From an uncultured bacterium (lineage in GTDB: Bacteria > Bacillota_I > Bacilli_A > RFN20 > CAG-826): 64,000 bases of DNA. The first letter of the stretch is position 1. Every line of letters starts with the position of its first letter. A model generated the notes under the pieces. The model did no database searches. It was not told the origin of the DNA and was given only the letters and a program-made list of their open reading frames with translations. Position numbers and translations under genes: made by a program. The stretch is taken from the NCBI GenBank assembly GCA_949285665.1, contig CASDYC010000001.1, positions 227,738-291,737 of the forward strand, given 5' to 3'. Below are positions 9,893 through 56,900 of this stretch, one piece after another.

Positions 9893-11155
9893 ATGAATTT
9901 TTTAGATTATCTACAAAAAGAATATTCAAAAGATGTATATGAAAAATTAATAAAAGAATTTGATAAGGAAAGAACTTACTCCTTTATTTTAAATACAATT
10001 AAATATGATGAAATTTTTGTTTCTGACATTATTTATAAAAAACACCCATACATAGACAATGCATATTACTCAAAAGAAAGTTTAGGAAATGATTATAGAT
10101 TTTGTAACGGAGTATTTTATATCCAAGATGCAGCTTCTATGATGATTTCTAAATTTTTAGATGTAAATGAAAATGATGTAATTTTAGATATGTGTGCCGC
10201 TCCAGGAGGAAAAAGCATTGATATTGCAATTAAATTAAAAAACAACGGGATCATAATTTCAAATGATATCAATTATTCAAGAGCAAAAATATTATCAAAT
10301 AATATTGAAAATTATGGATTTAGTAATGTTTTTGTAACTTGTAATGATTTTGAAAAAATATATAAATTTTATAACAAAAAGTTTTCTAAAATTATTCTAG
10401 ATGCCCCATGTAGCGGATCTTTTATGTTTAGAAAAAACGAATTTGCAAAAGAAGATTGGACACAAGAAAAAGTTAAAAAATATTCACTCATGCAAGAAGA
10501 TTTACTTGAATATGCATATTATATGTTACAAGATGGTGGAACTTTATATTATTCAACTTGTTCATTATCAAAAGAAGAAAATGAAATGCAAATAGAAAAA
10601 TTTTTAAATAAGCATGAAGATTTAGAATTAATTGACCTAAATAAAGATGATGAATTTGTAAATGGTAAAAAAAATATTGGTATTTATATAATGCCATATT
10701 TATTTGAATGTGAAGGACAATATATTTGTTTAATCAAAAAACACTGCAAAACCTCAATATTTTTTAATAATATAAATTATTCAAACACAAAAATAAAGGA
10801 ATTAAGTTTTTTAAATTTTAAAAATTTATACAAAACAGATAATGGAATTTATGGGTTTAATAAAGTAATAAATTTAAAATATTTTAATGTTTTAAGATAT
10901 GGATTAAAAATTCTTGATATCGAAAATAAAAAGATGACACCATCTTTAGCTCTTTCAAGATATTTAAATAATGATGATGCAATAAAATTAACATACGATG
11001 AATTTAAACAATATATTTCTGGACAACAATTAAATATAAATAAAGAAACTGGTTATTATATTGTTTCATATAATAATATTAATTTAGGCTTTATAAAAGT
11101 TTCAAATAATAAAGGAAATAATCTTTATCCAAAAAAATTAAGAAGATTTCTTTAA
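9893..11155 (+). CDS. rRNA cytosine-C5 methyltransferase, RsmB/RsmF (NOL1/NOP2/Sun) family with a C-terminal PUA-like domain
   Basis: SAM-binding DMCAAPGGKS, and catalytic LDAPCSGSF and YSTCSLS motifs. I prefer the ATG at 9893 (MNFLDYLQ). Repeat copy A sits in the linker between the domains. Confidence 0.8.
   Translation: MNFLDYLQKEYSKDVYEKLIKEFDKERTYSFILNTIKYDEIFVSDIIYKKHPYIDNAYYSKESLGNDYRFCNGVFYIQDAASMMISKFLDVNENDVILDMCAAPGGKSIDIAIKLKNNGIIISNDINYSRAKILSNNIENYGFSNVFVTCNDFEKIYKFYNKKFSKIILDAPCSGSFMFRKNEFAKEDWTQEKVKKYSLMQEDLLEYAYYMLQDGGTLYYSTCSLSKEENEMQIEKFLNKHEDLELIDLNKDDEFVNGKKNIGIYIMPYLFECEGQYICLIKKHCKTSIFFNNINYSNTKIKELSFLNFKNLYKTDNGIYGFNKVINLKYFNVLRYGLKILDIENKKMTPSLALSRYLNNDDAIKLTYDEFKQYISGQQLNINKETGYYIVSYNNINLGFIKVSNNKGNNLYPKKLRRFL
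10735..10767 (+). repeat. Dispersed ~31-nt repeat, copy A (caaaaaacaCTGCAAAACCTCAATATTTTTTAA)
   Basis: The 24-nt core at 10744-10767 is identical to copies B and D. It lies inside the rsmF-like CDS and is read as HCKTSIFFN. Confidence 0.9.
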
Positions 11156-11935
11156 TTCTTTCTTTTCTTTTTTGATTTTGACTTTATATTTTTTAATATC
11201 AACTTCTTTTTGTTCATTATAAACATCACTCATTATATTTGTTACATAGTTTGCAAAATCAGTGCTTTTAAATTCTTTATAATCATCTTTTATTAATTTT
11301 TGATCAATATTTAATTGAACTAATGATTTAATATTTTGATATCTTAAAAATTGTAAAGGTCGAAAAGTTCCAAATAAATTACAAACATATAAATCTTTTG
11401 ATGTATTTAAAATTATTTTAAAAGTACCATGATGAATTTCTAAAATTCCATTATATGGACTTTTTTGTCTTTTACCTTCTGGAAAAATTAACCAATCAAT
11501 CTCATTATTTTTAAGACTTTTTTCTATTTCTAAAATGGTTTTCACTTGGCTTTTTAAATCGCTTCTATCAAGAGTTTTACCATCTAAAATTTTTAAAACT
11601 CTCCCAACAAAAGGATATTTCATAACTTCTTTTTTAGCAACAAAGCTCATTGGTCTTGAAGCTAATGCAATAAAAATTAATGGATCTACCATTGATTGAT
11701 GATTACACATTATTACATATTTATTTTCATCATTTACATTAAATTTTTCTAAACCATAAACATCAATTTTTATATTTAAATATTTAATAACTTGAATACA
11801 AGCATATTGGACTTTTGCAAATCTTTGTTCAAATGGAATTTTATCTTTTTTAATTGAATAATATAAAATCCAAGAAAAATACCAATATATAATTTTTGGA
11901 ACTAAAACAAAAATTGCAAGAATTAATCTAATCAT
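11138..11935 (-). CDS. 1-acyl-sn-glycerol-3-phosphate acyltransferase family protein (PlsC-like)
   Basis: HX4D motif NHQSMVDP, the FPEGKR motif and an N-terminal TM helix. Confidence 0.8.
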   Translation of the reverse strand: MIRLILAIFVLVPKIIYWYFSWILYYSIKKDKIPFEQRFAKVQYACIQVIKYLNIKIDVYGLEKFNVNDENKYVIMCNHQSMVDPLIFIALASRPMSFVAKKEVMKYPFVGRVLKILDGKTLDRSDLKSQVKTILEIEKSLKNNEIDWLIFPEGKRQKSPYNGILEIHHGTFKIILNTSKDLYVCNLFGTFRPLQFLRYQNIKSLVQLNIDQKLIKDDYKEFKSTDFANYVTNIMSDVYNEQKEVDIKKYKVKIKKEKKELKKSS

Positions 11936-12216
11936 AAATCTTTTGCAATCCTTTCTTTTCCTTTATCTAAATATTGAACTCTTTCAGCAACAATAATTGG
12001 TAATCCATTTTCATCATTTGCTAAAGATCCCATGATGACTAATAAAGTGCCATCTTTAAATGACATAAATTTACAATTTGGAGAAGAGTTCCAATATCTT
12101 ACTTTAAATCTAAAAGTTTTAGCCTCACCATCATTAAAATTATCAAAAGAAACCATTCGATAACCATTTTCTAAGACTTCTTCTGCTCTACAAACTAAAG
12201 TAACACTTGAAATCAT
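11932..12216 (-). CDS. Hypothetical 94-aa protein
   Basis: The ORF sits between pulA (2-nt gap) and the plsC-like gene (ATGA overlap). I recognised no motif. Confidence 0.4.
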   Translation of the reverse strand: MISSVTLVCRAEEVLENGYRMVSFDNFNDGEAKTFRFKVRYWNSSPNCKFMSFKDGTLLVIMGSLANDENGLPIIVAERVQYLDKGKERIAKDL

Positions 12217-12218
12217 TA

Positions 12219-14375
12219 TTATTTAACCTCACCAAATAATTGAATTGAAAAGCCTGGAATTGCTAAATTAATAACATTTAAAGATTCCATTTCTGCATAT
12301 CCAACATCACTTAATAATAATCTTAAATAAACTTCTGAATTATAATATATTGTTTCATTTGAAGGATTTATAAATAGATGCATTTTTTTAAATTTTGAAT
12401 TTGGATCATATTTTTCAATGTCGTATTCGATTCTTACTCCACCCTTTTCAAGATTTTCAAAATAAACGACATCTTGAATTAAATCAGCAGATGAAACTTT
12501 TATAAAATTCATGGTTTTTCTAAATTTTATTAAGCTCTTTAAATAATTCGCCATATCAAAACGTTGATCTAGTAAATCATATCTAAACATATTATATTTA
12601 TCACCCATATTGTAAGTGTTATGATTATTATTTTTACTTTGACCAATTTCTTGACCAGCATGGAAAAATGGAACACCAAATGATAAAAGAATAGTTGCAT
12701 TAACCATTTTTAAAATTCTTTTTACAAATGAATAATCACTATTTCCATCACATGCACAAATCTTATCATATAAAGTTCCATTATCATGACATTCGGCATA
12801 ATTAATTGATTGATTAGCATTTAAAAATCTTCGGTTAAAACAATAATTTATGCATGAACCCATAACTGCAAATTTAAAACCTTCTAAGTATGAAAGATCT
12901 CCTGTCAAATAACCTTTTTGATAAAAACCACCCTCTGAAGATGGACCTTTTATAATATCTCGATATGAATCATTAAAAAATCCGATTTGAGGTAAATTTA
13001 ATGCATTATTTAAATTAGTTCTAAGTGACTCTTCAATTTCAGTTTGCATGTTCCAACCTTCACCATAAAGAATAAAATCTTTTTTAATCGCAATAGCTTC
13101 TCGATAAACTTTATTAATTGTATGTTTATCTGTTAAGCCCATTAAATCAAATCTAAAACCATCAATTCCAAATTCTTTAATCCAGAAAGTACAAGCATCA
13201 CAAATTAATTTAGAAACCATTTGTCTTTCACTTGCTACATCATTTCCACAGCCCGAACCATTTGACAAAAATCCATTTTGTCTTCTTCTAAAATAATAAT
13301 TAGGTACAACTTTTTCAAAAGCATTAAAGCCACTTTCAAATACATGATTAAAAACAACATCCATAACAACTTTAATTTTGTTATGATGTAATGCTTTAAT
13401 CATCTTTTTTAAATCAATAATTCTTGAATATGGATCTTCAACATCACTTGCATAACTTCCCTCTGGAACAAAATATTGTGCAGGATCATAACCCCAATTG
13501 TATTGTAAATCAGGGTGAAGTTCATCGACAGTTTTAAAATCAAAAAATGGAAGGATTTGAACATGGGTTACACCAAGATATTTTAAATAATCTAAACCTG
13601 CAGGATTGCCTTTTAGTGTTGTTCTTTTTTCTTCGGCTAAACCTAAAAATTTACCCTTGTTTTTAATATTAGTGTAAGGAGAAATTGTAAAATCTCTAAC
13701 ACTTAATTCATAAATTATTGCATCTGTATAAGATTTAGTAACTGGTAAATCTTCATTTTCTAAATCAATTTTTGTTCTTTTAAAATTAATTACAACACTA
13801 TATCTACCATTAGGAGTTGAACCTTTTGCATAAGGATCGCTTGTTTCTCTAACTAATCCAGAATTTTCAACAAAATATGAATAATAGGCTCCATCTAAAT
13901 TACCATCGACTTTACATCTATAAACACCTTTTGAAAATCTAACCATTGGAAGAGCTTCAAAACTTTTACCATTATTTCTTGATAATTTTAATAAAACATT
14001 GCTTGCAAGAGGTGCCCAGAGGACAAATTCGGTATATTTATCAAAATAATTTGCTCCTAAATCATCTCCATCATAATAATATTTTTCATCAAATTTTGGA
14101 TCAAGAGAAATTTCATTAACATTTAAAGATGTAATTCCAAAAGAATCAATTTGAATATCATATTTATGACCTAATTCAATTGTATAAGGAGTTTTACACT
14201 CATAGATAAAAATTCCAGAAATTGAATTTGTCTTTAAAATTTGTAAATTTTGTATATCAAATTCATCTTTAACAATTCTTATTGCTTCTCTCTCTGGTTT
14301 TGCATTTAAAGAAAATACAGTAACTCTAATTGTATTAAAATCTACTAAAATAGCCTGAAATGTTGTATTTTTCAT
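12219..14375 (-). CDS. pulA: Type I pullulanase / GH13 debranching enzyme
   Basis: GH13 conserved regions MDVVFNHV, GFRFDLMG, YGEGW and AECHDN, with an N-terminal CBM-like extension. Confidence 0.85.
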   Translation of the reverse strand: MKNTTFQAILVDFNTIRVTVFSLNAKPEREAIRIVKDEFDIQNLQILKTNSISGIFIYECKTPYTIELGHKYDIQIDSFGITSLNVNEISLDPKFDEKYYYDGDDLGANYFDKYTEFVLWAPLASNVLLKLSRNNGKSFEALPMVRFSKGVYRCKVDGNLDGAYYSYFVENSGLVRETSDPYAKGSTPNGRYSVVINFKRTKIDLENEDLPVTKSYTDAIIYELSVRDFTISPYTNIKNKGKFLGLAEEKRTTLKGNPAGLDYLKYLGVTHVQILPFFDFKTVDELHPDLQYNWGYDPAQYFVPEGSYASDVEDPYSRIIDLKKMIKALHHNKIKVVMDVVFNHVFESGFNAFEKVVPNYYFRRRQNGFLSNGSGCGNDVASERQMVSKLICDACTFWIKEFGIDGFRFDLMGLTDKHTINKVYREAIAIKKDFILYGEGWNMQTEIEESLRTNLNNALNLPQIGFFNDSYRDIIKGPSSEGGFYQKGYLTGDLSYLEGFKFAVMGSCINYCFNRRFLNANQSINYAECHDNGTLYDKICACDGNSDYSFVKRILKMVNATILLSFGVPFFHAGQEIGQSKNNNHNTYNMGDKYNMFRYDLLDQRFDMANYLKSLIKFRKTMNFIKVSSADLIQDVVYFENLEKGGVRIEYDIEKYDPNSKFKKMHLFINPSNETIYYNSEVYLRLLLSDVGYAEMESLNVINLAIPGFSIQLFGEVK

Positions 14376-14392
14376 AATTCACCTCTTCTTTT

Positions 14393-17633: not shown

Positions 17634-17664
17634 AATAAAAATTTTAAAGTTTTGCAGCGTTTTT
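17634..17664 (-). repeat. Dispersed ~31-nt repeat, degenerate copy F (minus strand: AAAAACGCTGCAAAACTTTAAAATTTTTAT)
   Basis: The A-run end overlaps the rnj TAA stop (17663-17665), the same arrangement as copy D. It lies 45-75 nt upstream of the ftsK start. Confidence 0.6.
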
Positions 17665-19351
17665 AATCAACTAAAATTATTTCAGGTTCAATAACTGGAC
17701 ATCTTAGTGTCGTTCTTCTTGTATATTTTGAAACTAATTCTTTAATTTCACTAATACATTCATTTTTATTAAATGGTTTATCTTGTTCTAAATATTTATT
17801 AACAGTCTCAATAAATAAATTTTCAATTCCTTTTAATATTGTTTCACTTTCTTTTAAATACAAATATCCTCTCATTTGAATATCTGGACCACCAATTATT
17901 TTTTTGGCAGATAATGAAACCAACAATGACATAACAACAATGCCTTCTTCTGATAATTTGTTACGTTCCATAATAATTCCACTTTCGACATCGCCAACAC
18001 CAATTCCATCAACCATTAAGTAGCCAACTTTTATTTTATCATTTTCAATGTAATTTAATTTAATCTCACCATCGACAAAATCAATAGCTGTTCCATTATC
18101 TAATAAATAAATATTTTTATGAGATAATCCTGTTTTCATTGAAGCGGCAACTTCAGCATTTGCAATTAAATCTTGATAGACTCCTTTAAGCGGAATGTAA
18201 TATTTTGGATTAATTAAAGATATAAAAAGTTTGATATCATCTTCACTCGGATGCATCTTTTTAATTTGTTTACGCGAAATATTAATAACATTACAATCGG
18301 TTTTATAAAGTTCATCTAAACAAGAAACTGCTAAAACTTCAAAATTACTAGCTGCTGGAGTTAAAAGTAAAAATGTGTCATCTTCTGAAATATAAAATCT
18401 TTGTTCAGCAATATCTTTTAAAGCAAGCATTGATATTTTTCTATAAAGTAAATCACCCATTCCAGAAATAATAATGCATATTGATGAATCTTTATATTTT
18501 GAAATATCATCAACATGTATAATAAATTGTGGATCTACATTATATATTCCAAGACTTGATATCGAATGATAAATTTCATATGTCTCTTCATCATAAAAAC
18601 AAATATACCTATTTGATTTTATACATTCATCCATAATTTCAATAAAATTATAAATATTTTGATAATAAACTGAAACGTACAATCTGCCATTACAATCATT
18701 TAATGCATGTCTTACGTAACTAGAAACTCGATGACTTGGACTTGTATATCCAGTTTTTGATGAATTTAAAGAATCCATTAATAATAAAAAGTTATTTTCT
18801 TCTGACAATTTTGCCAATGCCTTAAAATCAAAATTAAAATATTTATTACCACTACTTTCAATTATAAAATCACCTGAAAAAACAACATTCCCTTCACTAG
18901 TTGAGATAGCAATTCCAGAAGTTTCTGGTAGACTATGGGCTATTTGGAAAAATCTAATTTTGTGATCTTTTACATAAAATTCACTTGTTGCTTCTTGTTC
19001 TCTAACATCATAATTATCAAAATTGACATTTCTTTGTTTACATAATTGTTGCAATAAATATTTTGTAAATTTAGAAGCATAAATTGGTGCTTTAACTTTT
19101 TCATATAAATAAGTTATTGCTCCTAAAGTATCATCATGTCCATGACTTATTAAGTATGCAACAACACGATCTTTATTTTCTACTAAATAAGAAAAATCTG
19201 GAATTATAAAATCAATTCCTGAGGCAAACTTATCTGGATATCCAATACCTGCAGAAATAACAAAAATGTCACCATTTATTTCTAAACAATAACAATTATT
19301 ACCATTAGAATCTAAACCACCTAAAGCTACAAATCGAATCTTATCAACCAT
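17663..19351 (-). CDS. rnj: Ribonuclease J
   Basis: Metallo-beta-lactamase motif SHGHDDTLGA, a beta-CASP region and about 560 aa. Confidence 0.9.
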   Translation of the reverse strand: MVDKIRFVALGGLDSNGNNCYCLEINGDIFVISAGIGYPDKFASGIDFIIPDFSYLVENKDRVVAYLISHGHDDTLGAITYLYEKVKAPIYASKFTKYLLQQLCKQRNVNFDNYDVREQEATSEFYVKDHKIRFFQIAHSLPETSGIAISTSEGNVVFSGDFIIESSGNKYFNFDFKALAKLSEENNFLLLMDSLNSSKTGYTSPSHRVSSYVRHALNDCNGRLYVSVYYQNIYNFIEIMDECIKSNRYICFYDEETYEIYHSISSLGIYNVDPQFIIHVDDISKYKDSSICIIISGMGDLLYRKISMLALKDIAEQRFYISEDDTFLLLTPAASNFEVLAVSCLDELYKTDCNVINISRKQIKKMHPSEDDIKLFISLINPKYYIPLKGVYQDLIANAEVAASMKTGLSHKNIYLLDNGTAIDFVDGEIKLNYIENDKIKVGYLMVDGIGVGDVESGIIMERNKLSEEGIVVMSLLVSLSAKKIIGGPDIQMRGYLYLKESETILKGIENLFIETVNKYLEQDKPFNKNECISEIKELVSKYTRRTTLRCPVIEPEIILVD

Positions 19352-22409: not shown

Positions 22410-22676
22410 TTATTTTCTAATACCAAGTTTAACTAAAAGTTCAACATAAGCATCTCTATCTTTTTCAGCTAAGTGTCTTAATAAACTTCTTCTTTGACCA
22501 ACAAGAATCATAAGACCTCTTCTAGCAGATGCATCTTTCTTTGAAACTTTTAAGTGAGCAGTTAATTGTTTAATTCTTTCTGTTAAAATAGCAATTTGAA
22601 CTGCATCAGAACCTGTATCATGTTCATTTTTTCCAAATTCTTTAACAATTTTGGCTTTTTCTTGTTTTGATAACAT
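22410..22676 (-). CDS. rpsO: 30S ribosomal protein S15
   Basis: MLSKQEKAKIVKEFG...HDTGS...QIAILTERI...HLKVSKKDASARRGLMILVGQRR. I prefer the ATG at 22676, after an AAAGGAGAA RBS. The track's N-terminal extension is not S15-like. Confidence 0.95.
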   Translation of the reverse strand: MLSKQEKAKIVKEFGKNEHDTGSDAVQIAILTERIKQLTAHLKVSKKDASARRGLMILVGQRRSLLRHLAEKDRDAYVELLVKLGIRK

Positions 22677-22765
22677 TTTCTTTTCTCCTTTCTTAATTTC
22701 AACGCTTAATCCTAGAATAAAATCGGAGACTTTTAATCCCAAGACTAAGTTGCTCAAATATTATA

Positions 22766-23657: not shown

Positions 23658-24785
23658 ATGAATTCTATAAAAAAGATTTTGGCTTGCATTAGAACAGCTG
23701 ATAAAAAATTTAATTTAATTGAAAATGAAGATAAAATTGCCATTGGAATTTCTGGTGGCAAAGATTCAATGCTTCTTTTTTATGCTTTACATTTATATTC
23801 AAAATTTTCTTTTAATAATTTTAAAATAGTTCCAATTATGATTGATTTAGGATTTGATAATTTTAATCCAGAACCTATAAGAGCGTATCTTTCATCGTTT
23901 GGTTATGATTTAAAAATTTATGATGCTAAAAATGTATATCAAATTTTAAAATTAAACACTAAAGAAAACCACCATTTGCCATGTTCAATTTGTTCTAAGA
24001 TGAAAAAAGCAATCATCAATAAAGCTGCCAAAAAATATAAATGTAATAAAGTTGCTTTTGCTCATCACGCCGATGATGCAATAGAAACATTGTTTATGAA
24101 TGAAATATCTGGTGGAAAAATTGATACTTTTTCTCCAAAAATGTTTTTAACAAGAGAAAAAATAACTTTTATTAGACCTCTAATATTAGTTTTTGAAAAA
24201 GATATAATAAGATGTGTTAAAGAAAATGATGTTGCTACAATATCTTCAAACTGTCCTGCCGATAAATTAACTCAAAGACAAGATATTAAAGAACTATTAA
24301 ATTCAATATATAAACAATTTCCAGAATCTCATGAAAATTTTTTAACAATGATTACCAATTACGATCATATTGGTTTATGGGATGAAAATGAATTTAGAAA
24401 AATACAAAATAGTAATTTAAGTTTGAAAATTTGTTTAAATAAAAATGATTACTTTAACTTATTTAATTTATTTAAAATTAACAAATTTCATAACAATTAT
24501 GTTTATTACTTGATATATGAAAAAAACAATTTAATCGGTTGTTTTTCTTATTATTTAAAAAATAAAAATATATATCTAAACTTAATTAAAATTCTCAAAA
24601 ACTCTGCAAAACCTCAATATTTTTTAAAAATTATAAAAGAAATTGAAGTCATGTTATTTGAAAAGTATAACCCTTGTATTCTTTATACAAAATTAAAAAA
24701 TAATTACTTCAAAGAAAAATATAAAAAGGAAGATAACACTTTTTATCTTCCTTTAAATGGTAAATTAAGTAATATTTTAAAATGA
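23658..24785 (+). CDS. PP-loop ATPase of the TtcA/TilS tRNA-thiolation superfamily with an extra ~130-aa C-terminal domain
   Basis: PP-loop ISGGKDSM, CSICSKMKK, AFAHHADDAIETLFMN and CPADKLTQRQ. It ends in TGA. Repeat copy B lies in the C-terminal extension. Confidence 0.7.
   Translation: MNSIKKILACIRTADKKFNLIENEDKIAIGISGGKDSMLLFYALHLYSKFSFNNFKIVPIMIDLGFDNFNPEPIRAYLSSFGYDLKIYDAKNVYQILKLNTKENHHLPCSICSKMKKAIINKAAKKYKCNKVAFAHHADDAIETLFMNEISGGKIDTFSPKMFLTREKITFIRPLILVFEKDIIRCVKENDVATISSNCPADKLTQRQDIKELLNSIYKQFPESHENFLTMITNYDHIGLWDENEFRKIQNSNLSLKICLNKNDYFNLFNLFKINKFHNNYVYYLIYEKNNLIGCFSYYLKNKNIYLNLIKILKNSAKPQYFLKIIKEIEVMLFEKYNPCILYTKLKNNYFKEKYKKEDNTFYLPLNGKLSNILK
24597..24627 (+). repeat. Dispersed 31-nt repeat, copy B (AAAAACTCTGCAAAACCTCAATATTTTTTAA)
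   Basis: Identical over 31 nt to copy D on the opposite strand. It lies inside the PP-loop CDS and is read as NSAKPQYFLK, a different frame from copy A. Confidence 0.9.
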
Positions 24786-24790
24786 CAATT

Positions 24791-25144
24791 TTATTTTATT
24801 GATTTAATTTCTTCTTCGTCCTTTTTAATAAGTTCTTCGATTTTTTTACCATTTTCAAATGAATCATCTAATAAAAATTCAATGTTTGGAATTTTATAAA
24901 TATCCATTTTTTTAGCTAAAGAACTTTTAATGTATCCTTTCATTTTATTTAATTCTTCTAAATTAACTAAAGGTTCTTGAGTTCCTAAAAAAGAAACATA
25001 AATTCTTGCGTATTGATAATCACTTGAAAGTTTACAATCTGTGACTGTTACAAAACCAATACTTTTATTTCTAACTTCAAAGACTAAAATATCAGCTATA
25101 TTTTTTTTGATTAGCATTTCAATTCTTTTAATTTTGTCTGCCAT
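24791..25144 (-). CDS. rbfA: Ribosome-binding factor A
   Basis: The size, the position after infB, and the pattern VTVTDCKLSSDYQYARIYVS fit. Confidence 0.9.
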   Translation of the reverse strand: MADKIKRIEMLIKKNIADILVFEVRNKSIGFVTVTDCKLSSDYQYARIYVSFLGTQEPLVNLEELNKMKGYIKSSLAKKMDIYKIPNIEFLLDDSFENGKKIEELIKKDEEEIKSIK

Positions 25145-29881: not shown

Positions 29882-31138
29882 TTAATCCATGTAATCTTTT
29901 AATTTTAGTTGATCGAAAACTTTAAATTGTAAATCATTGTTATAAATCAAATTAACCATGGATTTATTCTTAACAACTTGACATAAAACTTTATTAATCA
30001 CTAACCCAATTAATGCTGGTAAGAAAATAATATTAATAGGCAAAAATGAAAATGATATTGCTAATGATGTTAAATGATTATTACTAACAACTGCATAAAA
30101 ACAAACCATAAATGTAATTGAAAGAATAATTGTATTAGATGGATTAAGATTTATAAAATAAGATAAGATATAACAAAATAAATATCCAAATAAATATCCT
30201 AGAGTTAAAGTTGGAATTACTCTACCACCAGCTAATTTTGTATTATATGTAAATAGCATTAAAAATAAACGAATAAACACTAATAACAATAAATAATAAA
30301 TTGATTTTATATTTAAAATATTTTCAAAAAATATTGATCCATTATTAACAAAATCATTGGAAATAAATTTTAAAGCAAAAATTAAAATAAAAGTCAAAAT
30401 AACAAAAATAATAAAACTAAACTTATTTCTTAAATATCTAAATAAATAGAAAAGATTTTTATATAAAAAACCTAAAATAAAAGAAATTATTCCAATAATT
30501 GGGATAAAACATAAATATAATGGTTCTAAATATGAAGTAATATTAATAAAATTTGAATAAATATAATTTCCATTTAATAAAATATAAAATAAATAACTAA
30601 CTAACAAAACATAAACAAAATATAAGTTATTTTTATTTAATATCTTTATTTTAAAATTCTCAAAACTATAAAATAAACCCGCTAATGGATTTAAAAATGC
30701 AATAGAAAAACCAATTCCCGGAAAATACTTTTTAAAATCATCATTTAAATAATTAAAAAATAAAAAACCTAAAATAAAAGCAATTAAAACACTTGGTGCT
30801 TCTGTTCCAAATGGTAATCCAATTATAAAACTTAAACAACAACTTACAATTGTTAGAATTATTAAAAGAATTGTTCCTATAATTTTATGTCTTTTAATAA
30901 ATCCTTTATTGACAAATTTTTCAGCTAATTTTAATAAAAAATACTCCAGGAGTAAAACTAAAACAATTAATAAAAAATAAGGTATTAAAAACGTATAATT
31001 TAATTCAATATTTATAAAATTAAATATTAATCCACTCAATTTATTAAAAGCAAAAAAGACAACACTTACTAAAAAAGAATATAAAGTTAATATTAAAAAA
31101 GTACCGCAAAACCTCAATATTTTACTTTTATTTGTCAT
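29882..31138 (-). CDS. Polytopic membrane protein, probable ClC-type chloride channel/antiporter family
   Basis: At least 10 predicted TM helices. ClC-like motifs GTEAPSVLIA (compare GxEGP) and GGRVIPTLTLGYLFG (compare GxFxP). Repeat copy C overlaps codons 6-14. Confidence 0.5.
   Translation of the reverse strand: MTNKSKILRFCGTFLILTLYSFLVSVVFFAFNKLSGLIFNFINIELNYTFLIPYFLLIVLVLLLEYFLLKLAEKFVNKGFIKRHKIIGTILLIILTIVSCCLSFIIGLPFGTEAPSVLIAFILGFLFFNYLNDDFKKYFPGIGFSIAFLNPLAGLFYSFENFKIKILNKNNLYFVYVLLVSYLFYILLNGNYIYSNFINITSYLEPLYLCFIPIIGIISFILGFLYKNLFYLFRYLRNKFSFIIFVILTFILIFALKFISNDFVNNGSIFFENILNIKSIYYLLLLVFIRLFLMLFTYNTKLAGGRVIPTLTLGYLFGYLFCYILSYFINLNPSNTIILSITFMVCFYAVVSNNHLTSLAISFSFLPINIIFLPALIGLVINKVLCQVVKNKSMVNLIYNNDLQFKVFDQLKLKDYMD
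31095..31123 (+). repeat. Dispersed repeat, copy C (aaaaaagtacCGCAAAACCTCAATATTTT)
   Basis: The 19-nt core GCAAAACCTCAATATTTT is shared with A, B and D. It is antisense to the 5' end of the ClC-like CDS, where it encodes KILRFCG. Confidence 0.75.
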
Positions 31139-38534: not shown

Positions 38535-39539
38535 TTAATATTTTTGTAATAAATCCTTCATAAATGTATCATTTAAATAGAAGTATTCCATATAAATTGC
38601 AGTTACCAATTGATATTCATCCTTTAATTGGTAAATCATATTATCATTTTTGTTATAGTTTAAGCAATAATCTAATATAACTTTAATTTCATTTGCGGCC
38701 TTTGGATTATTAATAATATTGTTAACTTCTCCTTCAATTTTGTAATCAATATGATCTTTAATTAATTCATATCTAATAAATGGATCACGATAACCATATT
38801 TAATGATATTAATTATATAAAATAATAATATTTTATAAAAATCTCTGCAATTCGTAGATATTTTTAAAAATTCATTATTATATTTATTAATTAAATATGT
38901 AAATAAATAGTCACATTTTTCAAAAACTCTATAATTATTATTAATCAAACTAATTAAATATTCATTCAAATATTTAAATAAATTTGGATATTTAATTTTA
39001 ATTAAATTGTCAGTAAATAATTCTGCATATAAGATTCTATCAAAAGCTTTTTCAAGACTTAATTCAAAATTATGTCTTGTTCCTCCACCTAATTCAGAAA
39101 TATTTGAAACAATTATTACTTTGGCGTTACTTCTAATTAAATTTTGACAATATGAAATTAAAGTATCAAAATCACTAGAAGCATATCTTTCTAAATCATC
39201 CAAAATAACAATTGCGGATGGATTATCATTATTAATTTTTAATGAAAAATCTAAGTTATTTTTATTATTTTCTAAATATAATAATGGATTAATTGCACTT
39301 GGAACTAATGAATCAACAATATGTTTATGATTAATTTCCATAAATAAAGATGTATTTATTTCATCTACGCTTCTTTTTCCAAGCAAAGATAAATAAATAA
39401 CTTTGCATTTATTAAATGACTTCATAAATTCATTTAATAAATAAGTTTTTCCACTACCCCAAGGTCCATCTAATAAAATTAAATTATCACTAGATTTATA
39501 ATAATTCTTTAAATAATTTAATAAATACTCTTTATTCAT
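38535..39539 (-). CDS. KAP-family-like P-loop NTPase (short, soluble)
   Basis: Walker A LLDGPWGSGKTYLLNEF and KAP-type Walker B IVILDDLERY. No TM insert. Its start overlaps the pdxK stop by 8 nt. Confidence 0.6.
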   Translation of the reverse strand: MNKEYLLNYLKNYYKSSDNLILLDGPWGSGKTYLLNEFMKSFNKCKVIYLSLLGKRSVDEINTSLFMEINHKHIVDSLVPSAINPLLYLENNKNNLDFSLKINNDNPSAIVILDDLERYASSDFDTLISYCQNLIRSNAKVIIVSNISELGGGTRHNFELSLEKAFDRILYAELFTDNLIKIKYPNLFKYLNEYLISLINNNYRVFEKCDYLFTYLINKYNNEFLKISTNCRDFYKILLFYIINIIKYGYRDPFIRYELIKDHIDYKIEGEVNNIINNPKAANEIKVILDYCLNYNKNDNMIYQLKDEYQLVTAIYMEYFYLNDTFMKDLLQKY

Positions 39540-48878: not shown

Positions 48879-49526
48879 TTATTTATTTTTTAGTTCAAGT
48901 CTTAATTTTTTTAACTTAGTTTTTTCATCATTATTAACTTGAAACGAGTCTATTATTTTAGATATTGCTTTTAATTTTATTTTTAAATTTAAGGGTGAAT
49001 TTTTTAAAAATATGTAGGTTTTGCTGGGAAATTTAATATATAAAAAAGAAATTAACCAAGCTTCAGCCATAATAACATAATATTGATTGTCATCTTTAAA
49101 TAATTTAAAAATTTTATCAAGATAATCACTATTTTTATATACGTCTTTTAAAAATAAAACATAACCAAGTCTTACAATAAATTCTTCTTTATAATTATTA
49201 ATTAAATATTTTGCAAATTCATATAAAGAATTTATATTTACATTATTTAAAAATTGATTAATTTGATCAACATGCCACCAATCATTTAAATTGTTTAAAT
49301 TATCATTAATAAAATCAAGTTGTTTATTAAAATCATCTTTTAAATAATATAATGAAACTTGAAAATAAATTCGATTAAATAAATAATCTTCTTTAATTAC
49401 AAAAGGTCTTAAAACACTAACATCTAAATTATTTTTTATAATATATTTAGAAATTTCATCTAAATCTTTTGTTTTTATTTTATTTTTATTAGTTAATTTA
49501 TTTTTTATATAAAAATATAAATCCAT
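48879..49526 (-). CDS. DNA alkylation repair (AlkD-like HEAT-repeat) family protein
   Basis: Helical repeat pattern with WWHVDQ... and YYVIMAEAWLISFLYIKFP, typical of the DNA_alkylation family. This call rests on pattern similarity only. Confidence 0.5.
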   Translation of the reverse strand: MDLYFYIKNKLTNKNKIKTKDLDEISKYIIKNNLDVSVLRPFVIKEDYLFNRIYFQVSLYYLKDDFNKQLDFINDNLNNLNDWWHVDQINQFLNNVNINSLYEFAKYLINNYKEEFIVRLGYVLFLKDVYKNSDYLDKIFKLFKDDNQYYVIMAEAWLISFLYIKFPSKTYIFLKNSPLNLKIKLKAISKIIDSFQVNNDEKTKLKKLRLELKNK

Positions 49527-49527
49527 T

Positions 49528-50513: not shown

Positions 50514-50546
50514 CAAAAAGCTCTCCAAAACCTAAATATTTTTAAA
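50514..50546 (+). repeat. Dispersed repeat, degenerate copy E (caaaaagctCTCCAAAACCTAAATATTTTTAAA)
   Basis: It aligns with the consensus with a few substitutions. It is intergenic, 69-100 nt upstream of the LysR start. Confidence 0.6.
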
Positions 50547-50610
50547 AAAGGTTTAAATTTATTTGAAAAAAATTAATAATATTGTCCAATTTATCTTGTT
50601 ATTTTTTAAT

Positions 50611-51567
50611 TTAATTAAAATTTAAAGCTAAAATATCACTAAATTTTGATAAATAATCATCAAATTTATAAACAAAACAATCTAATTTATCATATGTTTT
50701 TATATAATAAGTCATATTTTTTGGATCTAAAATTGATGTATAAATTGTAATTTCGCTTTTATTATCGCCTGTTAAAGCTTCGCCTTTAATAACGCTAACT
50801 TTTGAAAATATATGAAATAATTCATTAATTAAATTATCTTTATTTGTAATATTTTTTAATAAATTTTCTTTTAAATAAACACTTCTAATAAATCTTGAAG
50901 GACTTGAAGAATCTCCTGGTAAACCAGTTGCGTTACTTCCAATGCAAAATGGTTTTAAATCATAATTTGTATTGAAATTATTTGAATAATATTTATTTGT
51001 TAAATTTAAATATAACTTAATATTTTCTAAATGATATGTAAATGGAGGGTTATTTGTTAATACTTCAAATGTATTATCATATATTTTTAAACCATCTTTA
51101 TCTGGTTCTAAGACAATTGAGCCATCTTTATCACTAATTAAAAAATGCAAATAACTTAATGGCATATTATCTAAAAATGGTTTATTTATTAATTGTATAT
51201 TTTTACAAACCTCTTTTACTTCTTTAATATTCGAACAATTATTTAATAAATAAATTATTAATTCATAAGGAGCTAAATTTATTTTATTTTTATCTATGTC
51301 ATTAAAGTAATATGCGTTTTGAGGATAATTTAATCCTGCAATACATAATCCTTTTTCATTCATTGCTTCTGAAAATAAAGGATAATTATTTAATAAAGCT
51401 CCAATTCCCATCATATTATAATTAGATTTTTGTTCACTTAAAAATTTAAAAGTGAATTTGTAATTTTTATTTAATAGTATTAATTTTTCATTAAAATGGT
51501 AATCTAAATCTAAATTTCTACCAAAAATATAATTATCTTTATATTTTAATTTTATTGCCGTGCACAT
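50611..51567 (-). CDS. Choloylglycine hydrolase family Ntn-hydrolase (bile salt hydrolase / penicillin V acylase-like)
   Basis: N-terminal MCT with the nucleophile Cys2, FGRNLDLDY, and the expected size. Confidence 0.85.
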   Translation of the reverse strand: MCTAIKLKYKDNYIFGRNLDLDYHFNEKLILLNKNYKFTFKFLSEQKSNYNMMGIGALLNNYPLFSEAMNEKGLCIAGLNYPQNAYYFNDIDKNKINLAPYELIIYLLNNCSNIKEVKEVCKNIQLINKPFLDNMPLSYLHFLISDKDGSIVLEPDKDGLKIYDNTFEVLTNNPPFTYHLENIKLYLNLTNKYYSNNFNTNYDLKPFCIGSNATGLPGDSSSPSRFIRSVYLKENLLKNITNKDNLINELFHIFSKVSVIKGEALTGDNKSEITIYTSILDPKNMTYYIKTYDKLDCFVYKFDDYLSKFSDILALNFN

Positions 51568-51569
51568 AA

Positions 51570-52199: not shown

Positions 52200-52264
52200 G
52201 TTTAATAATACCTTTCTTATCTTATTTAATATGCAATATCAATTTAAATTAATTAATTAAATAT

Positions 52265-52654: not shown

Positions 52655-52656
52655 AA

Positions 52657-55533
52657 TTAATTATTTATATCCTTTTTAAAATATTCATATAAATCACTTC
52701 TAACTTCATCACTTAAAGCAAAGTTAAATACAACATATTTAAAATTATTTCTCATAATTTCTTTAAAATCAATTACACTCATTTCACCTAAAAAATAATG
52801 CTTATTGCTTCCGCTATTTTCATCAATTGATTTTCTAACAAATAAATAAATTTTTGTATTATTATTTTTAGAATTTATCAAAGTTTGCATGTTCTTTGAT
52901 TCAATATACTCCCCATGTCTTGAATTCCATTGAAATTTTTGTCTATTTATAAACATATCTTCATATCTAGTCGCATCAGAAATTTCTGGAGTTTTTATAT
53001 AATTAATAAAAATAGGAAATACATTTTCTTCTTTTAAATATTGATAACCATATATAGTACTTGCTCTATTTATTTTACAATTAAAAATAATTGAAACATC
53101 TTCTCTTGAATATAAAGAATTTAAACATAAATCAGATTTTTTATATTTTTTTCCATAAAATTTATTATTTCTTAATTTAGACATTAATATTAAGTTATTA
53201 ATATTATCTAAAAATGAAGAATTTTTTAACATCTCTTCAAAATTTTCACTAATGTTTAATGAATTATTAATTAAACTTAAAGAATCATTGTTTTTTCCAT
53301 AAAAACAACCATTAAATTCATTAATAATTGTCAATTTTTTATTTAAAGAAATTAATTTTTCATCAAAATATTTAGTTAAATTTTTATTTTTAAATAGATA
53401 TTCAAGAGCATTAACTTCAGCTAATCTTAATCCAGAAGATATAATTTTTGAAATAAATCGATAATATTCAAGTTCTTTTTGTGAATAATTTAAATCTTTT
53501 TCAATTTTTAAAAGAAAATCTTGATAAGATTTAAATTTTTCAATAATTCTATATGGATCAAAATAAGTAAATTCATAGAAATCAGTTAAATTTGGAATTC
53601 TATTAAGTCTATTTTTTAGATGCGCATATTCAATTTTAAAGTTTGACAGGGTATCAAAATTAGTTTTCTTAATTGATTCAAATATTTTCTTTTGAGCAAT
53701 TTCATCAAATTCAATTGTTGAAATTCCAGGAATGAATGAAGATGTAACAACTAATCTTGCTTGTTCTTTATTACCAGATTCTGAAAATGCTTTAGCTATC
53801 ATATAATTTGAATCATAATTTCCAATAAAGTCAATTATTGTAACAAAATCTTTATTCTTCCATTTTCTAAGACCTCTACCAAGTTGTTGAATAAAAATAA
53901 TGCTTGATTGAGTTGGTCTTAACATTATTATTTGATTAACTTCTGGAATGTCGACGCCTTCATTAAGAATATCAACAGAAATAATAAAATCTAAATATTC
54001 ACTATTTTTATTAGTTTCTTCAAGCAATTTAAAATATTTTTCTCTTTCATTTGATGAAAAAGAGCCATCTAAAAATTTGGTTTTATAATTTTTTTGATTC
54101 AATAAAGTTTCAAGTCTTCTTCCTTCTTCTTTTCTAGAAACAAAAATTAAACCTCTTAATCTATCTCCGCTATATCCATAAAAATTACTTTGTTTAATAA
54201 TATATTCAACTCTTTCATTACTAAATAATTTATTAAAGTCTTGTTTATCATATGTTTCATCGTTAATTCCTTTTAAATCAGTTATCCCATAGTAATGAAA
54301 AGGGCATAATAATCCATAATCAAGGGCATCTTCTAATCTAATTTCAAAAATAACATTATGATCAAATAAATTAAAAATTAAGCTTTCATCATTAGTTCTT
54401 TCTGGTGTTGCAGTCATTCCAAGAATAAATTTAGGTTTAAAATAATTTAATATTTTTTGATATGTATTTGAACCAGCTCTATGTACTTCATCAATAACAA
54501 TATAATCAAATTTTGTAACTTCAATAAAATCGTCAATTTTTTTAGACATCATTTCACAAGTTGAAAATACAAAATCATATTCATTATTATCAAAATATGA
54601 AACATCATTTAAATTTTTAATATAAGTTTTGTCTCCAGTTAGAATTGAAAAAGATGAATTAGGAAAAATTCTTTGATAAGCAGATATTGCTTGAATTAAT
54701 AATGTAGTTCTATGAGCTAAGAAAAGAACTTTTTTAGCAATAACATTTTTTAAGGCAAATGCGCTAGCATATGTTTTTCCAGTTCCAGTTGATGAAATTA
54801 ATAAACCTCTTTTACCACCTAGCTCAATTAGTTCTTTAAATTTTTTACTAAACTCTATTTGCATTGAGTTTGGTTCAATTTTTTGATTAATTAAATTATC
54901 AACACTTAATATAACTTTTTCTTTGTTAGCTTCATCATAAATTTTAGTATAAGTGTCTATGTAATCATTTAAATCTGTTGATTTTTTCCATAATAAATTA
55001 AATTGATCGAATAATTCTTTTATTAATTTTCCATCTTTAGTTGAAATTAATTCAGTATTCCATTCTTGATTAACTGTTAAAGCTCTAGCAGTTATATTAC
55101 TAGATCCAATAATAATTTTATAAATATCATCTTTTTGTTTAAAAAAATAACCCTTTGTATGAAAACCATCAAGATCAGATGATTTATACATTTTAACTTC
55201 AATATTGTTAAAATTATCCTGTAAAAATTTTAATGCTTTTGGTTCAGTAAAACATAAATAATCACTTGTTAAAATTTTACCTTTTATGCCCTTATCATTA
55301 ATTTCTTTTAATGTTTCTTTTAATATTTGAAGTCCAGAATATGTTATAAATGCTACAGAAATATAAAATTCTTCGCATTTTTTAAATTCTTCTTTTAAAG
55401 TTGAAATTATTTTTTTATTTTCTTCTTTATTATTGTATAAAAAAGAAGGACATAACGACTCAACTGAATCTAAATTATAATCTATAAAAGCTTTATTTAG
55501 AGCATTTTTAATATCATTATAAGTTTCACTCAT
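52657..55533 (-). CDS. PLD/HKD nuclease - SF2 (ResIII-like) helicase - DUF3427 fusion protein, 958 aa
   Basis: HKD motif HTKGYFF...IIGSSNITARAL near residues 125-150. Helicase motifs: I STGTGKTYAS, II IVIDEVHR, III GMTATPER, and V/VI NEGVDIPEVN...QQLGRGLRK. The C-terminal ~150 aa fit the DUF3427 pattern (YSREDV...GYQY...PIFINY...YEDMF...FQWNS...LFVRK...HYFLGE). Confidence 0.8.
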   Translation of the reverse strand: MSETYNDIKNALNKAFIDYNLDSVESLCPSFLYNNKEENKKIISTLKEEFKKCEEFYISVAFITYSGLQILKETLKEINDKGIKGKILTSDYLCFTEPKALKFLQDNFNNIEVKMYKSSDLDGFHTKGYFFKQKDDIYKIIIGSSNITARALTVNQEWNTELISTKDGKLIKELFDQFNLLWKKSTDLNDYIDTYTKIYDEANKEKVILSVDNLINQKIEPNSMQIEFSKKFKELIELGGKRGLLISSTGTGKTYASAFALKNVIAKKVLFLAHRTTLLIQAISAYQRIFPNSSFSILTGDKTYIKNLNDVSYFDNNEYDFVFSTCEMMSKKIDDFIEVTKFDYIVIDEVHRAGSNTYQKILNYFKPKFILGMTATPERTNDESLIFNLFDHNVIFEIRLEDALDYGLLCPFHYYGITDLKGINDETYDKQDFNKLFSNERVEYIIKQSNFYGYSGDRLRGLIFVSRKEEGRRLETLLNQKNYKTKFLDGSFSSNEREKYFKLLEETNKNSEYLDFIISVDILNEGVDIPEVNQIIMLRPTQSSIIFIQQLGRGLRKWKNKDFVTIIDFIGNYDSNYMIAKAFSESGNKEQARLVVTSSFIPGISTIEFDEIAQKKIFESIKKTNFDTLSNFKIEYAHLKNRLNRIPNLTDFYEFTYFDPYRIIEKFKSYQDFLLKIEKDLNYSQKELEYYRFISKIISSGLRLAEVNALEYLFKNKNLTKYFDEKLISLNKKLTIINEFNGCFYGKNNDSLSLINNSLNISENFEEMLKNSSFLDNINNLILMSKLRNNKFYGKKYKKSDLCLNSLYSREDVSIIFNCKINRASTIYGYQYLKEENVFPIFINYIKTPEISDATRYEDMFINRQKFQWNSRHGEYIESKNMQTLINSKNNNTKIYLFVRKSIDENSGSNKHYFLGEMSVIDFKEIMRNNFKYVVFNFALSDEVRSDLYEYFKKDINN

Positions 55534-55538
55534 ATGAT

Positions 55539-56213
55539 TTATTTATCTTTTTTATTAATTTTATCAACTTCTTTTGGATTATAACTTGTCTTATATCCAT
55601 AATTTTCTTTAGGTCGATAATTATTTGGATAAATTATATCTGATTTAATATCATTAGCTATTTTTTGTAATCTTTCATAAATAAAATATGGATCCTTAAT
55701 ATCTTCTAAAATATATTTTTTATTATCTGCAACAATGTAAATATCTCCGACTTTACATAACCTTTCAACTAAACCGATTTTTAAATTAACACTAGAAATA
55801 GAAGAATAATTAATACTTGATATATTTGCTCCAATAAAACCAGATTTAATAATTATTCTATTTCCAGTAAAGGCGTATTCTTCAACTTTTTGTCTTCTTG
55901 AAGCGGTAATTAATGAAGAAATCCATAACCACACTGGTAATAAATGTAATATAAAAAAGAATACTATAAAAATAATAGCAGGCAATGGTATTTCAGACAT
56001 AAATTTAAAAATCATTACAATTGCTGTTATATCAAATATCAACCATATAATTGCAAATGGTAAAAACTTAAAAATATTTGATAAAATAAAAGACAACTTT
56101 CGTGGTTTTCCTTTCCAAAGAATCGTTTCATCACTTGTAAGAACTAGATCAATACTAGGATTATAATTTACCTTATTATCTTTAATAAAATATTTATCGT
56201 CAATTTTTTTCAT
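55539..56213 (-). CDS. Membrane protein with a bacterial PH (bPH_2/YdbS-like) domain
   Basis: Two TM helices, then FTGNRIIIKSGFIGANISSINYSSISSVNLKIGLVERLCKVGDIYI, typical of bPH_2. Confidence 0.6.
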   Translation of the reverse strand: MKKIDDKYFIKDNKVNYNPSIDLVLTSDETILWKGKPRKLSFILSNIFKFLPFAIIWLIFDITAIVMIFKFMSEIPLPAIIFIVFFFILHLLPVWLWISSLITASRRQKVEEYAFTGNRIIIKSGFIGANISSINYSSISSVNLKIGLVERLCKVGDIYIVADNKKYILEDIKDPYFIYERLQKIANDIKSDIIYPNNYRPKENYGYKTSYNPKEVDKINKKDK

Positions 56214-56239
56214 ATAAAAATTATAATTAATTTTTGTTT

Positions 56240-56797
56240 TTAATAATAGTATTTATTACCATATGTTTTACAAATATTTGAAATATCTTCTGCTTTTAAA
56301 ACTTCATAATGATATTTTACCTCTATTTCATCCAAATTATATTCTTTTTTAACTGGAATAATTAAACTTTTAAAGGCAATATCGTCAGTAACAACCTCTC
56401 CACAATATGAATAAATGTTTACTTTATAGCCATCTACATTTGCAAAATGAACATATGAACCTGTACCCTCATATCTGCAAGTAACTAGTAAATTAAATTT
56501 ATTAAAATCTACCTCATTTTCTATTCTATCTTTAAGATAGTCATTATTTGTTTCATATTTAAAATAATTTGGATCGTTAAAATAAATTAGTAAATCATCA
56601 AGTGAAAAAAATAGTTTTTTATCAATGTATCTAAAAAAACTATCATCAAGATTAGGGTAATCTAATAAATCAGCCCATCTTGGATATTTTCTAGTTCCAT
56701 AAATCAAGCTAACATCATAATTAAGCTTATAAGATAGCTGACATCCTGTAATAAAAAATAATGAAACTAATAAATTTAGAAAAACACTTTTTTTCAT
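56240..56797 (-). CDS. Lipoprotein, function unknown
   Basis: Lipobox LFFITGC. It is the first gene of the helicase operon. Confidence 0.45.
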   Translation of the reverse strand: MKKSVFLNLLVSLFFITGCQLSYKLNYDVSLIYGTRKYPRWADLLDYPNLDDSFFRYIDKKLFFSLDDLLIYFNDPNYFKYETNNDYLKDRIENEVDFNKFNLLVTCRYEGTGSYVHFANVDGYKVNIYSYCGEVVTDDIAFKSLIIPVKKEYNLDEIEVKYHYEVLKAEDISNICKTYGNKYYY

Positions 56798-56844
56798 GTT
56801 TTTATTATACTAAAAAATGTCAAAAATATACTAAATTATTCCTA

Positions 56845-56866
56845 AAAAACTACTTAAAAACTACTT
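56845..56866 (+). repeat. Perfect tandem duplication of an 11-mer (aaaaactactt x2) adjacent to repeat copy D
   Basis: Read directly from the sequence. It lies in the promoter region of the lipoprotein/bPH/helicase operon. Confidence 0.8.
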
Positions 56867-56869
56867 TTC

Positions 56870-56900
56870 TTAAAAAATATTGAGGTTTTGCAGAGTTTTT
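56870..56900 (-). repeat. Dispersed 31-nt repeat, copy D (minus strand AAAAACTCTGCAAAACCTCAATATTTTTTAA)
   Basis: Identical to copy B over 31 nt. The A-run end overlaps the TAA stop of the GNAT gene. It lies 73 nt upstream of the operon start at 56797. Confidence 0.9.

Follow-up and report, generated by a model that had tools for sequence, protein, structure and literature searches.

The 64,000 nts stretch of DNA analyzed here (hereafter the window; contig CASDYC010000001.1, positions 227,738 to 291,737, assembly GCA_949285665.1) comes from an uncultured bacterium of the Bacillota, lineage CAG-826, and carries a dispersed repeated word of about 31 nts. This word is very probably a lineage-specific genomic signature of ~28-31 nts that is recognized at the DNA level and evolves in situ. 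The repeat family is real, statistically secure and previously undescribed; a full-text literature search gave no match to the sequence of the word. Its conservation was shown to be that of duplex DNA and not that of an RNA, a peptide or an inserted element.

Sequence and copies of the word in the window

The window copies (n=9) have the consensus (T/C)AAAAAC-YCTGCAAAAC-N5-6-TATTTTTT. The 31-mer AAAAACTCTGCAAAACCTCAATATTTTTTAA is present exactly at 24597-24627 (+) and 56870-56900 (-) and with one mismatch at 10737-10767 (+), a 24-mer core has three exact copies and one further copy at three mismatches (50523-50546), and the 18-mer GCAAAACCTCAATATTTT has four exact copies, including the one at 31106-31123 (+). 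The six copies listed in the initial annotation were all recovered, with their coordinates and sequences, by exact-match, mismatch and weight-matrix scans, and the proposal that a 24-31-mer should not recur by chance was upheld. The 24-mer core had no match in 100 dinucleotide shuffles, the 18-mer had 8 matches at up to three mismatches compared to 0.67 expected, and a position-weight scan detected nine copies of at least 15 bits compared to a mean of 0.07 and a maximum of 1 in 30 dinucleotide shuffles. Among oligomers of at least 11 nts the word is the most over-represented in the window, which has 24% G+C, a GC skew that is negative throughout and a minus strand carrying most genes. An independent confirmation came from a Logan contig (k=31) of the same strain, L125, whose position 1 lies inside copy D (window ~56899) because an exact 31-nt repeat breaks a k=31 de Bruijn graph.

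Copy A (10737-10767, +; 31-mer with one mismatch, 41 bits) is in sense orientation in the RsmF-like gene (9893-11155); it is read KKHCKTSIFFN and is located at the start of the linker that joins the methyltransferase domain to the PUA domain. Copy B (24597-24627, +; exact 31-mer, 42 bits) is in sense orientation in the TtcA-like PP-loop gene (23658-24785), is read NSAKPQYFLKI and occupies the place of the former GNAT motif-A loop in a degenerate GNAT domain. The translations given earlier for these two copies, HCKTSIFF and AKPQYFLK, are both contained in these readings. Copy C (31096-31125, +; exact 18-mer core with a weaker 5' part, 29 bits) is, as first described, antisense to coding DNA, opposite codons ~5-14 within the first ~15 codons of a ClC-like ORF (29882-31138). 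Copy D (56870-56900, -; exact 31-mer, 40 bits) is intergenic, with its A-run over the TAA stop of a GNAT gene (56899-57408), and the ORF 56240-56797 starts ~73 nts downstream. Copy E (50515-50546, +; degenerate, 33 bits) is also intergenic, located between the CBAH and LysR genes and antisense to both; it is degenerate in the window strain and a perfect consensus in the relative CALVNF01, at 95% average nucleotide identity (ANI). Copy F (17636-17665, -; degenerate, 32 bits) is in the spacer separating rnj and ftsK, and its A-run extends over the TAA stop of rnj (17663-19351), so that the arrangement initially reported for D and F was found at both genes, and the proximity of C, D, E and F to minus-strand start codons held at distances of 15-75 nts.

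A seventh good copy, new with respect to the earlier six, was identified at 49005-49034 (-; 27.9 bits), in sense orientation in the ORF 48879-49526 (215 aa, no Pfam match), and is also present in CALVNF01. Of the two weak copies, the one at 3296-3325 (+; 19 bits), antisense in alaS (2815-5475), is kept in three other assemblies of the species, and the one at 38837-38866 (+; 19 bits), antisense in the ORF 38535-39539, is of uncertain membership. The window copies are split 6 (+) to 3 (-) with a constant GC skew, and they lie 1.5-18 kb apart without any array, in agreement with the earlier statement that the repeat is not CRISPR-like.

The genes carrying copies A and B deserve two remarks of their own. 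The RsmF-like ORF, when taken as 9833-11155 (+), starts at a GTG that is ~20 codons too far upstream, as the homologues all start at the Met corresponding to 9893. The gene at 23658-24785 (+), described as a PP-loop or TilS-like gene, belongs to the TtcA-like family, in which the protein of most relatives (395-397 aa) ends in a fused GNAT acetyltransferase domain. In the window lineage the motif-A loop of this domain is degenerate, and in the locus L111 (345 aa) the whole domain is gone.

The absence of a hairpin noted initially was also found by folding: minimum free energies ranged from 0 to -3.5 kcal/mol with z-scores of about 0 (0.2 to 2.1, and one of -0.4), and the consensus contains no dyad. 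Rfam gave no match at any copy, either at the gathering threshold or at E values up to 5. An inverted partner within 150 nts was found for only 1 of 50 strong copies.

Distribution, dialects and origin of the copies

A genome collection with one genome per species was scanned with the 18-mer, giving at least 108 places. About 75% of the matches listed were chance matches in unrelated taxa lacking the 5' part. Among the matches listed, at least ~25 places belong to low-GC metagenome-assembled genomes (MAGs) labelled "Bacilli", "Mollicutes" or "Firmicutes" (BRZ_FB bin55, RGIG4434, BRZ_QA59, BRZ_QT77, O80 bin52, RGIG5418, SRR873596 bin132 and Candidatus Alectryobacillus, among others), and these places also carry the 5' part AAAAAC-YCT, which was absent from the search pattern. 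At least 15 related uncultured Bacilli MAGs carry the word, at sites that are not orthologous; BRZ_FB bin55 (CALVNF01) is collinear with the window at ~95% identity, and the other low-GC loci are not syntenic with the window. No array was present at any of the at least 108 listed places. The genes next to the copies are unrelated housekeeping genes (nusG, PTS EIIC, udk, dnaX, nnr, rsmG and sugar ABC transporter genes). Neither a transposase nor a recombinase gene adjoined the copies among the neighbours inspected. A consensus was also derived from 23 unseeded copies, that is, extra copies in the loci found and copies in loci fetched via protein homologues, and reads nAAAAAC-cCTGCAaAAC-(5-6 variable)-TATTTTT. 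A scan of Joint Genome Institute (JGI) metagenomes anchored on FtsK returned a single distant locus (36% identity). Two scans of viral collections gave 1 and 2 matches, all of them chance coding matches on contigs of 35-47% GC, and BLAST of the consensus against phages and plasmids gave nothing better than E ~1.

Abundance was measured in relatives' loci fetched through RsmF-like and TtcA-like homologues and not through the motif; the weight matrix was built without L118-L121, L126 and L127, and detections in these loci are independent. Densities in relatives rest on samples of 14-64 kb: copies of at least 15 bits numbered 12 in 37.6 kb of a TONG22 scaffold (L121 and L119), 7 in 21 kb of L111, 2 in 16.7 kb of L126, 1 in 14 kb of L118, and none in 21 kb of the fully syntenic L120 or in 21 kb of L127 (Erysipelotrichales). 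Dinucleotide-shuffle nulls were ~0.1 or less for the window and for the relatives' loci. The abundance of the word is therefore a property of the lineage, ranging from 1 per 3 kb down to none. In the same species as the window, no copy is present in the adjoining 10 kb on the left (comEC, holA, rpsT, fmt, dinG, lepA).

Each genome has its own variant of the word, or dialect, common to several unlinked copies. The window species uses ACTCTGCAAAAC (copies B and D, copy E in CALVNF01, and L020), RGIG4434 and BRZ_QA59 use ACCCTGCAAAAC, the L111 species uses GCAGAAC or GCAAATC, and TONG22 uses GCAAAAC together with GCAGTTC in 5 of 12 copies. The variants also include ACTCT versus ACCCT, each common to several loci per genome. 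Certain positions are nevertheless kept over long distances. In the window (F) and in L115, which is at 58% RsmF identity, a copy occupies the rnj-ftsK spacer. Another such position, where the TtcA-like gene ends beside rbfA, has a copy in the window, L111, L118 and L119, and six lineages have the word in the RsmF linker. Between CALVNF01 and the window strain all copies are at the same places. The 18-nt core of copies A-D is identical in the two strains and the flanks are ~7% different, a comparison biased by how the copies were found, and copy E differs at 7 of 34 positions compared to 11 of 300 in its flanks.

The initial annotation had suggested an in-frame selfish element of the Rickettsia type, and had proposed that orthologues of the RsmF-like and PP-loop proteins be aligned for a lineage-specific insertion of ~10 residues. 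No such insertion was found: residues are substituted and lengths are kept. RsmF homologues are of equal length and KKHCKTSIFFN replaces the usual LKKxG linker start without an indel; copy B likewise takes the place of the former GNAT motif-A loop in the TtcA-like protein, collinearly and without an indel. Genes of TONG22 gave the same picture. Its dtd carries two copies and, when aligned codon by codon with four orthologues lacking the motif, has no insertion; the series AAA ATT TCT AAA TTA AGA GTT TTT has become AAA CTC TGC AAA ACT CGA TTA TTT, changing a conserved KISKLR to KLCKTR, and the antisense copy is built on the conserved GG-xx-TTTTTGG of the GVFG motif. The two copies in truB, where ILKSFLG has become VLQGFLG, and the single copy in alaS are likewise collinear with motif-less orthologues. 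Each alignable coding copy is thus collinear, without an indel, and in-frame insertion of a mobile element is therefore excluded. As read from these alignments, it can be regarded as established that copies arise in place by point substitution, sometimes at the protein's cost, and that substitution is favoured where the A/T skeleton already fits. The places where copies are tolerated are gene 3' ends, convergent spacers, inter-domain linkers and codons with a word-like A/T skeleton. The view that conservation resides in the DNA and not in the protein was further borne out by the occurrence of copies in 2 sense and 2 antisense frames and at 3 positions, in 2 frames, of the same RsmF linker depending on the lineage; in the TtcA-like gene the word occupies 2 positions ~35 codons apart.

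Placement was analyzed for 46 strong copies (at least 25 bits) in 311 kb of DNA that is 90% coding. Ten copies are coding and sense, 6 are coding and antisense, and the other 30 (65%) are intergenic, with 6 in convergent spacers, 2 in divergent spacers, and 10 sense and 5 antisense in co-directional spacers. The intergenic enrichment is 5-6 times; of the 20 copies in unseeded loci, 10 are intergenic though 90% of the DNA is coding (P ~7e-6 by our own arithmetic). Of the biases that the initial annotation proposed to look for, the one in strand was absent, with 22 copies on the + strand and 24 on the - strand, whilst position relative to genes was biased, 3' ends and convergent spacers being favoured. 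Intergenic copies hug 3' ends and extend over the stop codon in D, F, L040 and L111; in L111 the copies at 8612 and 21225 fill the entire convergent spacer, and copies are found beside intrinsic terminators, on either side, in L020, L089, L097, L046 and L075. Coding copies are located in linkers or tails (RsmF, Nnr/YjeF, the DnaX tail) or at pre-adapted codons.

Arrangements on a larger scale were observed at particular loci. In RGIG5418 (L075, 80-410 and 3000-3330) the word lies inside a duplicated stretch of ~260 bp with 89% identity, the only case within a longer duplicated unit; an extended -10 promoter lies inside this stretch, and one of the two units follows a tRNA-Glu gene and a terminator. 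In nnr (yjeF), inverted copies ~560 bp apart are present in two species, at 2280-2309 (+) and 2845-2874 (-) in L101 and at 6536-6565 (+) and 7101-7130 (-) in L067. One copy of the pair is in the inter-domain linker and is read AKPQYF, and there was no sign of inversion at these two loci.

Combined, the word is free of orientation, made by substitution, variable in abundance between lineages, divided into dialects and absent from mobile DNA. It must therefore be read by a lineage-specific factor and be kept by selection or drive.

Candidate readers of the word

The word may act as a DNA-uptake signal resembling the DNA uptake sequences (DUS) of Neisseriaceae and the uptake signal sequences (USS) of Pasteurellaceae such as Haemophilus influenzae, a putative function that we put forward tentatively. 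It was ranked first because in situ origin, dialects and variable abundance match those of DUS and USS and because comEA and comEC are nearby; comEA is at 977-1531 and an intact comEC adjoins the window in this species, and both genes are found in the same situation in TONG22. Species dialects of known uptake words are documented in PMC3630211. In the proposed mechanism, a lineage-specific protein would recognize the word regardless of orientation and gene context, the DNA-uptake (competence) machinery being the preferred candidate. Fragments bearing the word would be preferentially bound and imported and would then recombine into the chromosome, so that molecular drive would propagate mutations improving a near match, even those that are somewhat harmful to the protein. 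The word and its receptor would co-evolve, yielding dialects, and the word would decay where specificity is lost. On this account the word could possibly be the first sequence-specific uptake signal described in Gram-positives, a bipartite signal of 28-31 nts read by a putative competence-pilus or ComEA-type receptor, and the drive, powered by transformation, would be strong enough to alter conserved residues in housekeeping enzymes.

Several observations weigh against an uptake function. Firstly, comEA and comEC are common in non-competent Firmicutes and prove nothing. Secondly, DUS and USS occur roughly once per kb, and the word is present at 1 per 3-8 kb in the samples that bear it, 3-20 times below that density. 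In the k-mer spectrum no short core dominates, the best sub-words occurring 4-8 times per locus, and inverted pairs forming terminators, a frequent arrangement of DUS and USS, are almost lacking here (1 of 50). There is a mild sense-strand bias relative to the local gene, 20 sense versus 11 antisense. Exact-core copies may also be regionally clustered in CALVNF01, where, among the matches listed, 5 of ~8 are within the 56 kb matching the window, with no copy in the adjoining 10 kb on the left. Finally, according to 10.1101/2025.10.24.684340, uptake specificity is known for Neisseriaceae and Pasteurellaceae and not for Bacillota. A literature search gave nothing relevant on competence in RF39 or on uptake sequences in Gram-positives. 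Of the explanations first suggested for the repeat, the uptake-type signal is the only one with a matching evolutionary signature, but the low density speaks against it.

The main rival, held to be almost as likely as uptake, is that the word may be the site of a lineage-specific protein with an architectural or chromosome-maintenance role (for example a nucleoid-associated protein, a factor that loads or unloads condensin, an occlusion factor or a marker of self DNA for a nuclease or helicase). On this view many sites per chromosome would be selected, evolving in place where tolerated and co-evolving with the protein. Such a site would account for in situ origin, dialects, orientation neutrality and gene-independent placement as well as uptake does, and it would explain better than uptake the persistence of copies in the rnj-ftsK spacer, in the RsmF linker and at the end of the TtcA-like gene, which suggests that these neighbourhoods require a copy. 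The possible clustering of exact-core copies of CALVNF01 in the region matching the window, among the matches listed, would also fit, and the A-tract and T-tract, which as read from the sequence are about one helical turn apart, fit a bent protein site. However, the word is long and asymmetric, unlike the short palindromic parS, NBS, matS and SBS, and no parS is present in the window, where matches are at chance level. For a housekeeping site, moreover, one would not expect densities that vary among syntenic relatives between 1 per 3 kb and none.

The preference for 3' ends could also indicate a transcription-unit boundary, in the form of a factor-dependent terminator or roadblock without hairpin, an insulator or an mRNA 3'-end element, with coding copies as by-products; we consider this unlikely. 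The intergenic location of 65% of the strong copies points in this direction, as do the many copies that abut a stop codon (D, F, L040, L046, L023, L111), those located just after or before an intrinsic terminator (L020, L089, L097, L075) and the sense bias of 20 to 11. The word itself reads as C-rich and G-poor and ends in a T-run, and genes of convergent pairs in the window are so close together, or even overlap, that a terminator would not fit between them. Nevertheless, one third of the copies are antisense, others are in the middle of coding sequences (dtd codon ~46, truB), and the word is found on either side of genuine terminators, and so inside or outside the transcript. A boundary element would also have to function without secondary structure or Rfam match, and non-synonymous changes that create copies in conserved enzymes are hard to see as by-products.

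An operator for a transcription factor with a large regulon, one of the explanations considered in the initial annotation, is quite improbable. It would exploit direct repeats of the response-regulator type, CAAAAAC and GCAAAAC, 10-11 bp apart, a helical spacing that is apparent from the sequence of the word; C, D, E and F are 15-75 nts from start codons and several copies of relatives are 35-145 nts upstream of genes. But half to two thirds of the copies are outside promoters, in convergent spacers and mid-coding DNA among other places, both orientations relative to the downstream gene occur, the neighbours are unrelated housekeeping genes and some genomes have as many copies as 1 per 3 kb.

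Least probable of all, with hardly any chance of being correct, is a selfish mobile mini-element (an insert like the Rickettsia palindromic elements, a miniature inverted-repeat transposable element, the solo transposon ends evoked earlier or a recombinase target site), which would suit a word that is dispersed, near-identical and lineage-specific in abundance, and the two inverted copies ~560 bp apart inside nnr of two species, but which is contradicted by the collinearity of all alignable coding copies with motif-less orthologues, by the lack of hairpins, of terminal inverted repeats or target-site duplications in aligned flanks and of an adjacent transposase or recombinase, by the identical places of copies in 95%-ANI strains, by a strain-specific breakpoint (57474) without a copy and by the lack of phage, plasmid or viral matches.

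Further candidates were tried and rejected. For promoters (sigma-70 -35/-10, sigma-54 and SigH/ComX boxes, and a -35 following the reverse complement), the sequence shows that the spacing is unfit or that the putative -10 falls outside the conserved block. Serine-invertase half-sites were considered because of a likeness of CAAAAACC/GCAAAACC to hix/gix half-sites; no inverted half-site is present and the copies are unpaired. The strain-specific breakpoint at 57474 was likewise considered for a recombination site and carries no copy. The AKPQYF peptide was considered as a protein motif; L066, L068 and L056 are chance coding matches, and copies A and D and the intergenic ones exclude it as a general explanation. 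A polar word of the Chi or KOPS/SRS type was rejected for lack of leading-strand skew, 22 (+) to 24 (-), and a structured RNA family for lack of any Rfam match or fold.

Surrounding genes, significance and known systems

Three convergent gene pairs of the window overlap or nearly touch and are too tight for an intergenic terminator: mgsA/pynp (7309-9859, 11-nt overlap), rsmF/acyltransferase (9833-11935, 18-nt overlap) and the TtcA-like gene/rbfA (23658-25144, 5-nt gap). Two of their three plus-strand genes carry a sense copy in the 3' part. Next to copy E, the gene at 50611-51567 (-) encodes a member of the choloylglycine hydrolase (bile-salt-hydrolase) family (Pfam CBAH, E 2e-82), as would suit a bacterium living in the gut. 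Downstream of copy D, 52657-56797 (-) is a three-gene operon encoding an uncharacterized protein of 185 aa, a bPH_2 protein and a protein of 958 aa that combines PLD nuclease, ResIII helicase and DUF3427 domains in a defence-like architecture; the end of a TTGACA-17-TATAAT promoter is only ~7 nts from the ATG at 56797, pointing to a leaderless mRNA. Collinearity with CALVNF01 stops at 57474, ~66 nts upstream of the GNAT gene. The strain-specific segment beyond it (57475-64000) carries a surface nuclease with Big_2 and Endonuclease I domains (58871-61180), a NACHT-like ATPase (62966-63994) and several ORFs without Pfam match, and contains no copy of the word. Two matches to RNA leaders were also noted. 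Upstream of alaS (2815-5475), a T-box leader is located at 5448-5643 (-), with 83 bits and E 1.8e-16 for an Rfam gathering score of 93. A weak match to the ribosomal S15 leader (22623-22675, -; 27.5 bits, E 0.025) lies in an over-long ORF starting at a TTG (22410-22757); the true start of rpsO is probably downstream of this TTG, and relatives call an 88-aa S15.

The word is a clear case of a DNA-level force overriding constraint at the protein level. It is a clean clade-specific marker that can flag contigs of the clade in metagenomes, and the exact 31-nt repeat fragments k=31 short-read de Bruijn assemblies of the species. If the word were an uptake signal, transformation with a preference for self DNA would no longer be confined to two proteobacterial families but would reach the Bacillota and abundant uncultured gut lineages, with a bearing on recombination, resistance to foreign DNA and engineering of these reduced genomes. 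If it were an architectural or self-marking site, it would represent a new class of long asymmetric chromosomal site with its partner protein.

Several families of repeated words offer a comparison. Like REP/BIME, ERIC, BOX and RUP elements, the word is short, dispersed, present in tens to hundreds of copies, found at 3' ends and in convergent spacers, and lineage-specific. REPs are extragenic imperfect palindromes forming hairpins, whereas the word has neither dyad nor fold, a third to half of its copies are inside genes, and it arises by substitution and not by transposition. It resembles the Rickettsia palindromic elements as a repeat inside ORFs that is translated in permissive protein segments; these elements are insertions of ~100-150 bp that add residues, whereas the word adds none. 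Chi, KOPS/SRS, parS, NBS and matS are likewise protein-recognized words scattered regardless of genes and evolving in place. Chi and KOPS are 5-8 nts long with a strong leading-strand skew, and parS, NBS and matS are palindromes of 13-16 bp.

Uptake sequences differ from the word in several respects. The host here belongs to the Bacillota, without an outer membrane or known uptake specificity, the word occurs once per 3-8 kb compared to ~1 per kb for USS and DUS, its information is spread over ~28 nts without a dominant core of 9-12 nts, and it is almost never found in inverted-pair terminators. The likenesses are those of an over-represented non-palindromic word on both strands, in coding and intergenic DNA with an intergenic excess, that originates by point mutation in place at weakly constrained or pre-adapted codons and shows species dialects and a lineage-dependent abundance. 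The extended USS has a similar build, with ~29 nts, a core containing G and C and helically spaced A/T tracts. We file the word, by analogy, as uptake-sequence-like or as a genomic-signature word, and not as a confirmed member of the DUS and USS.

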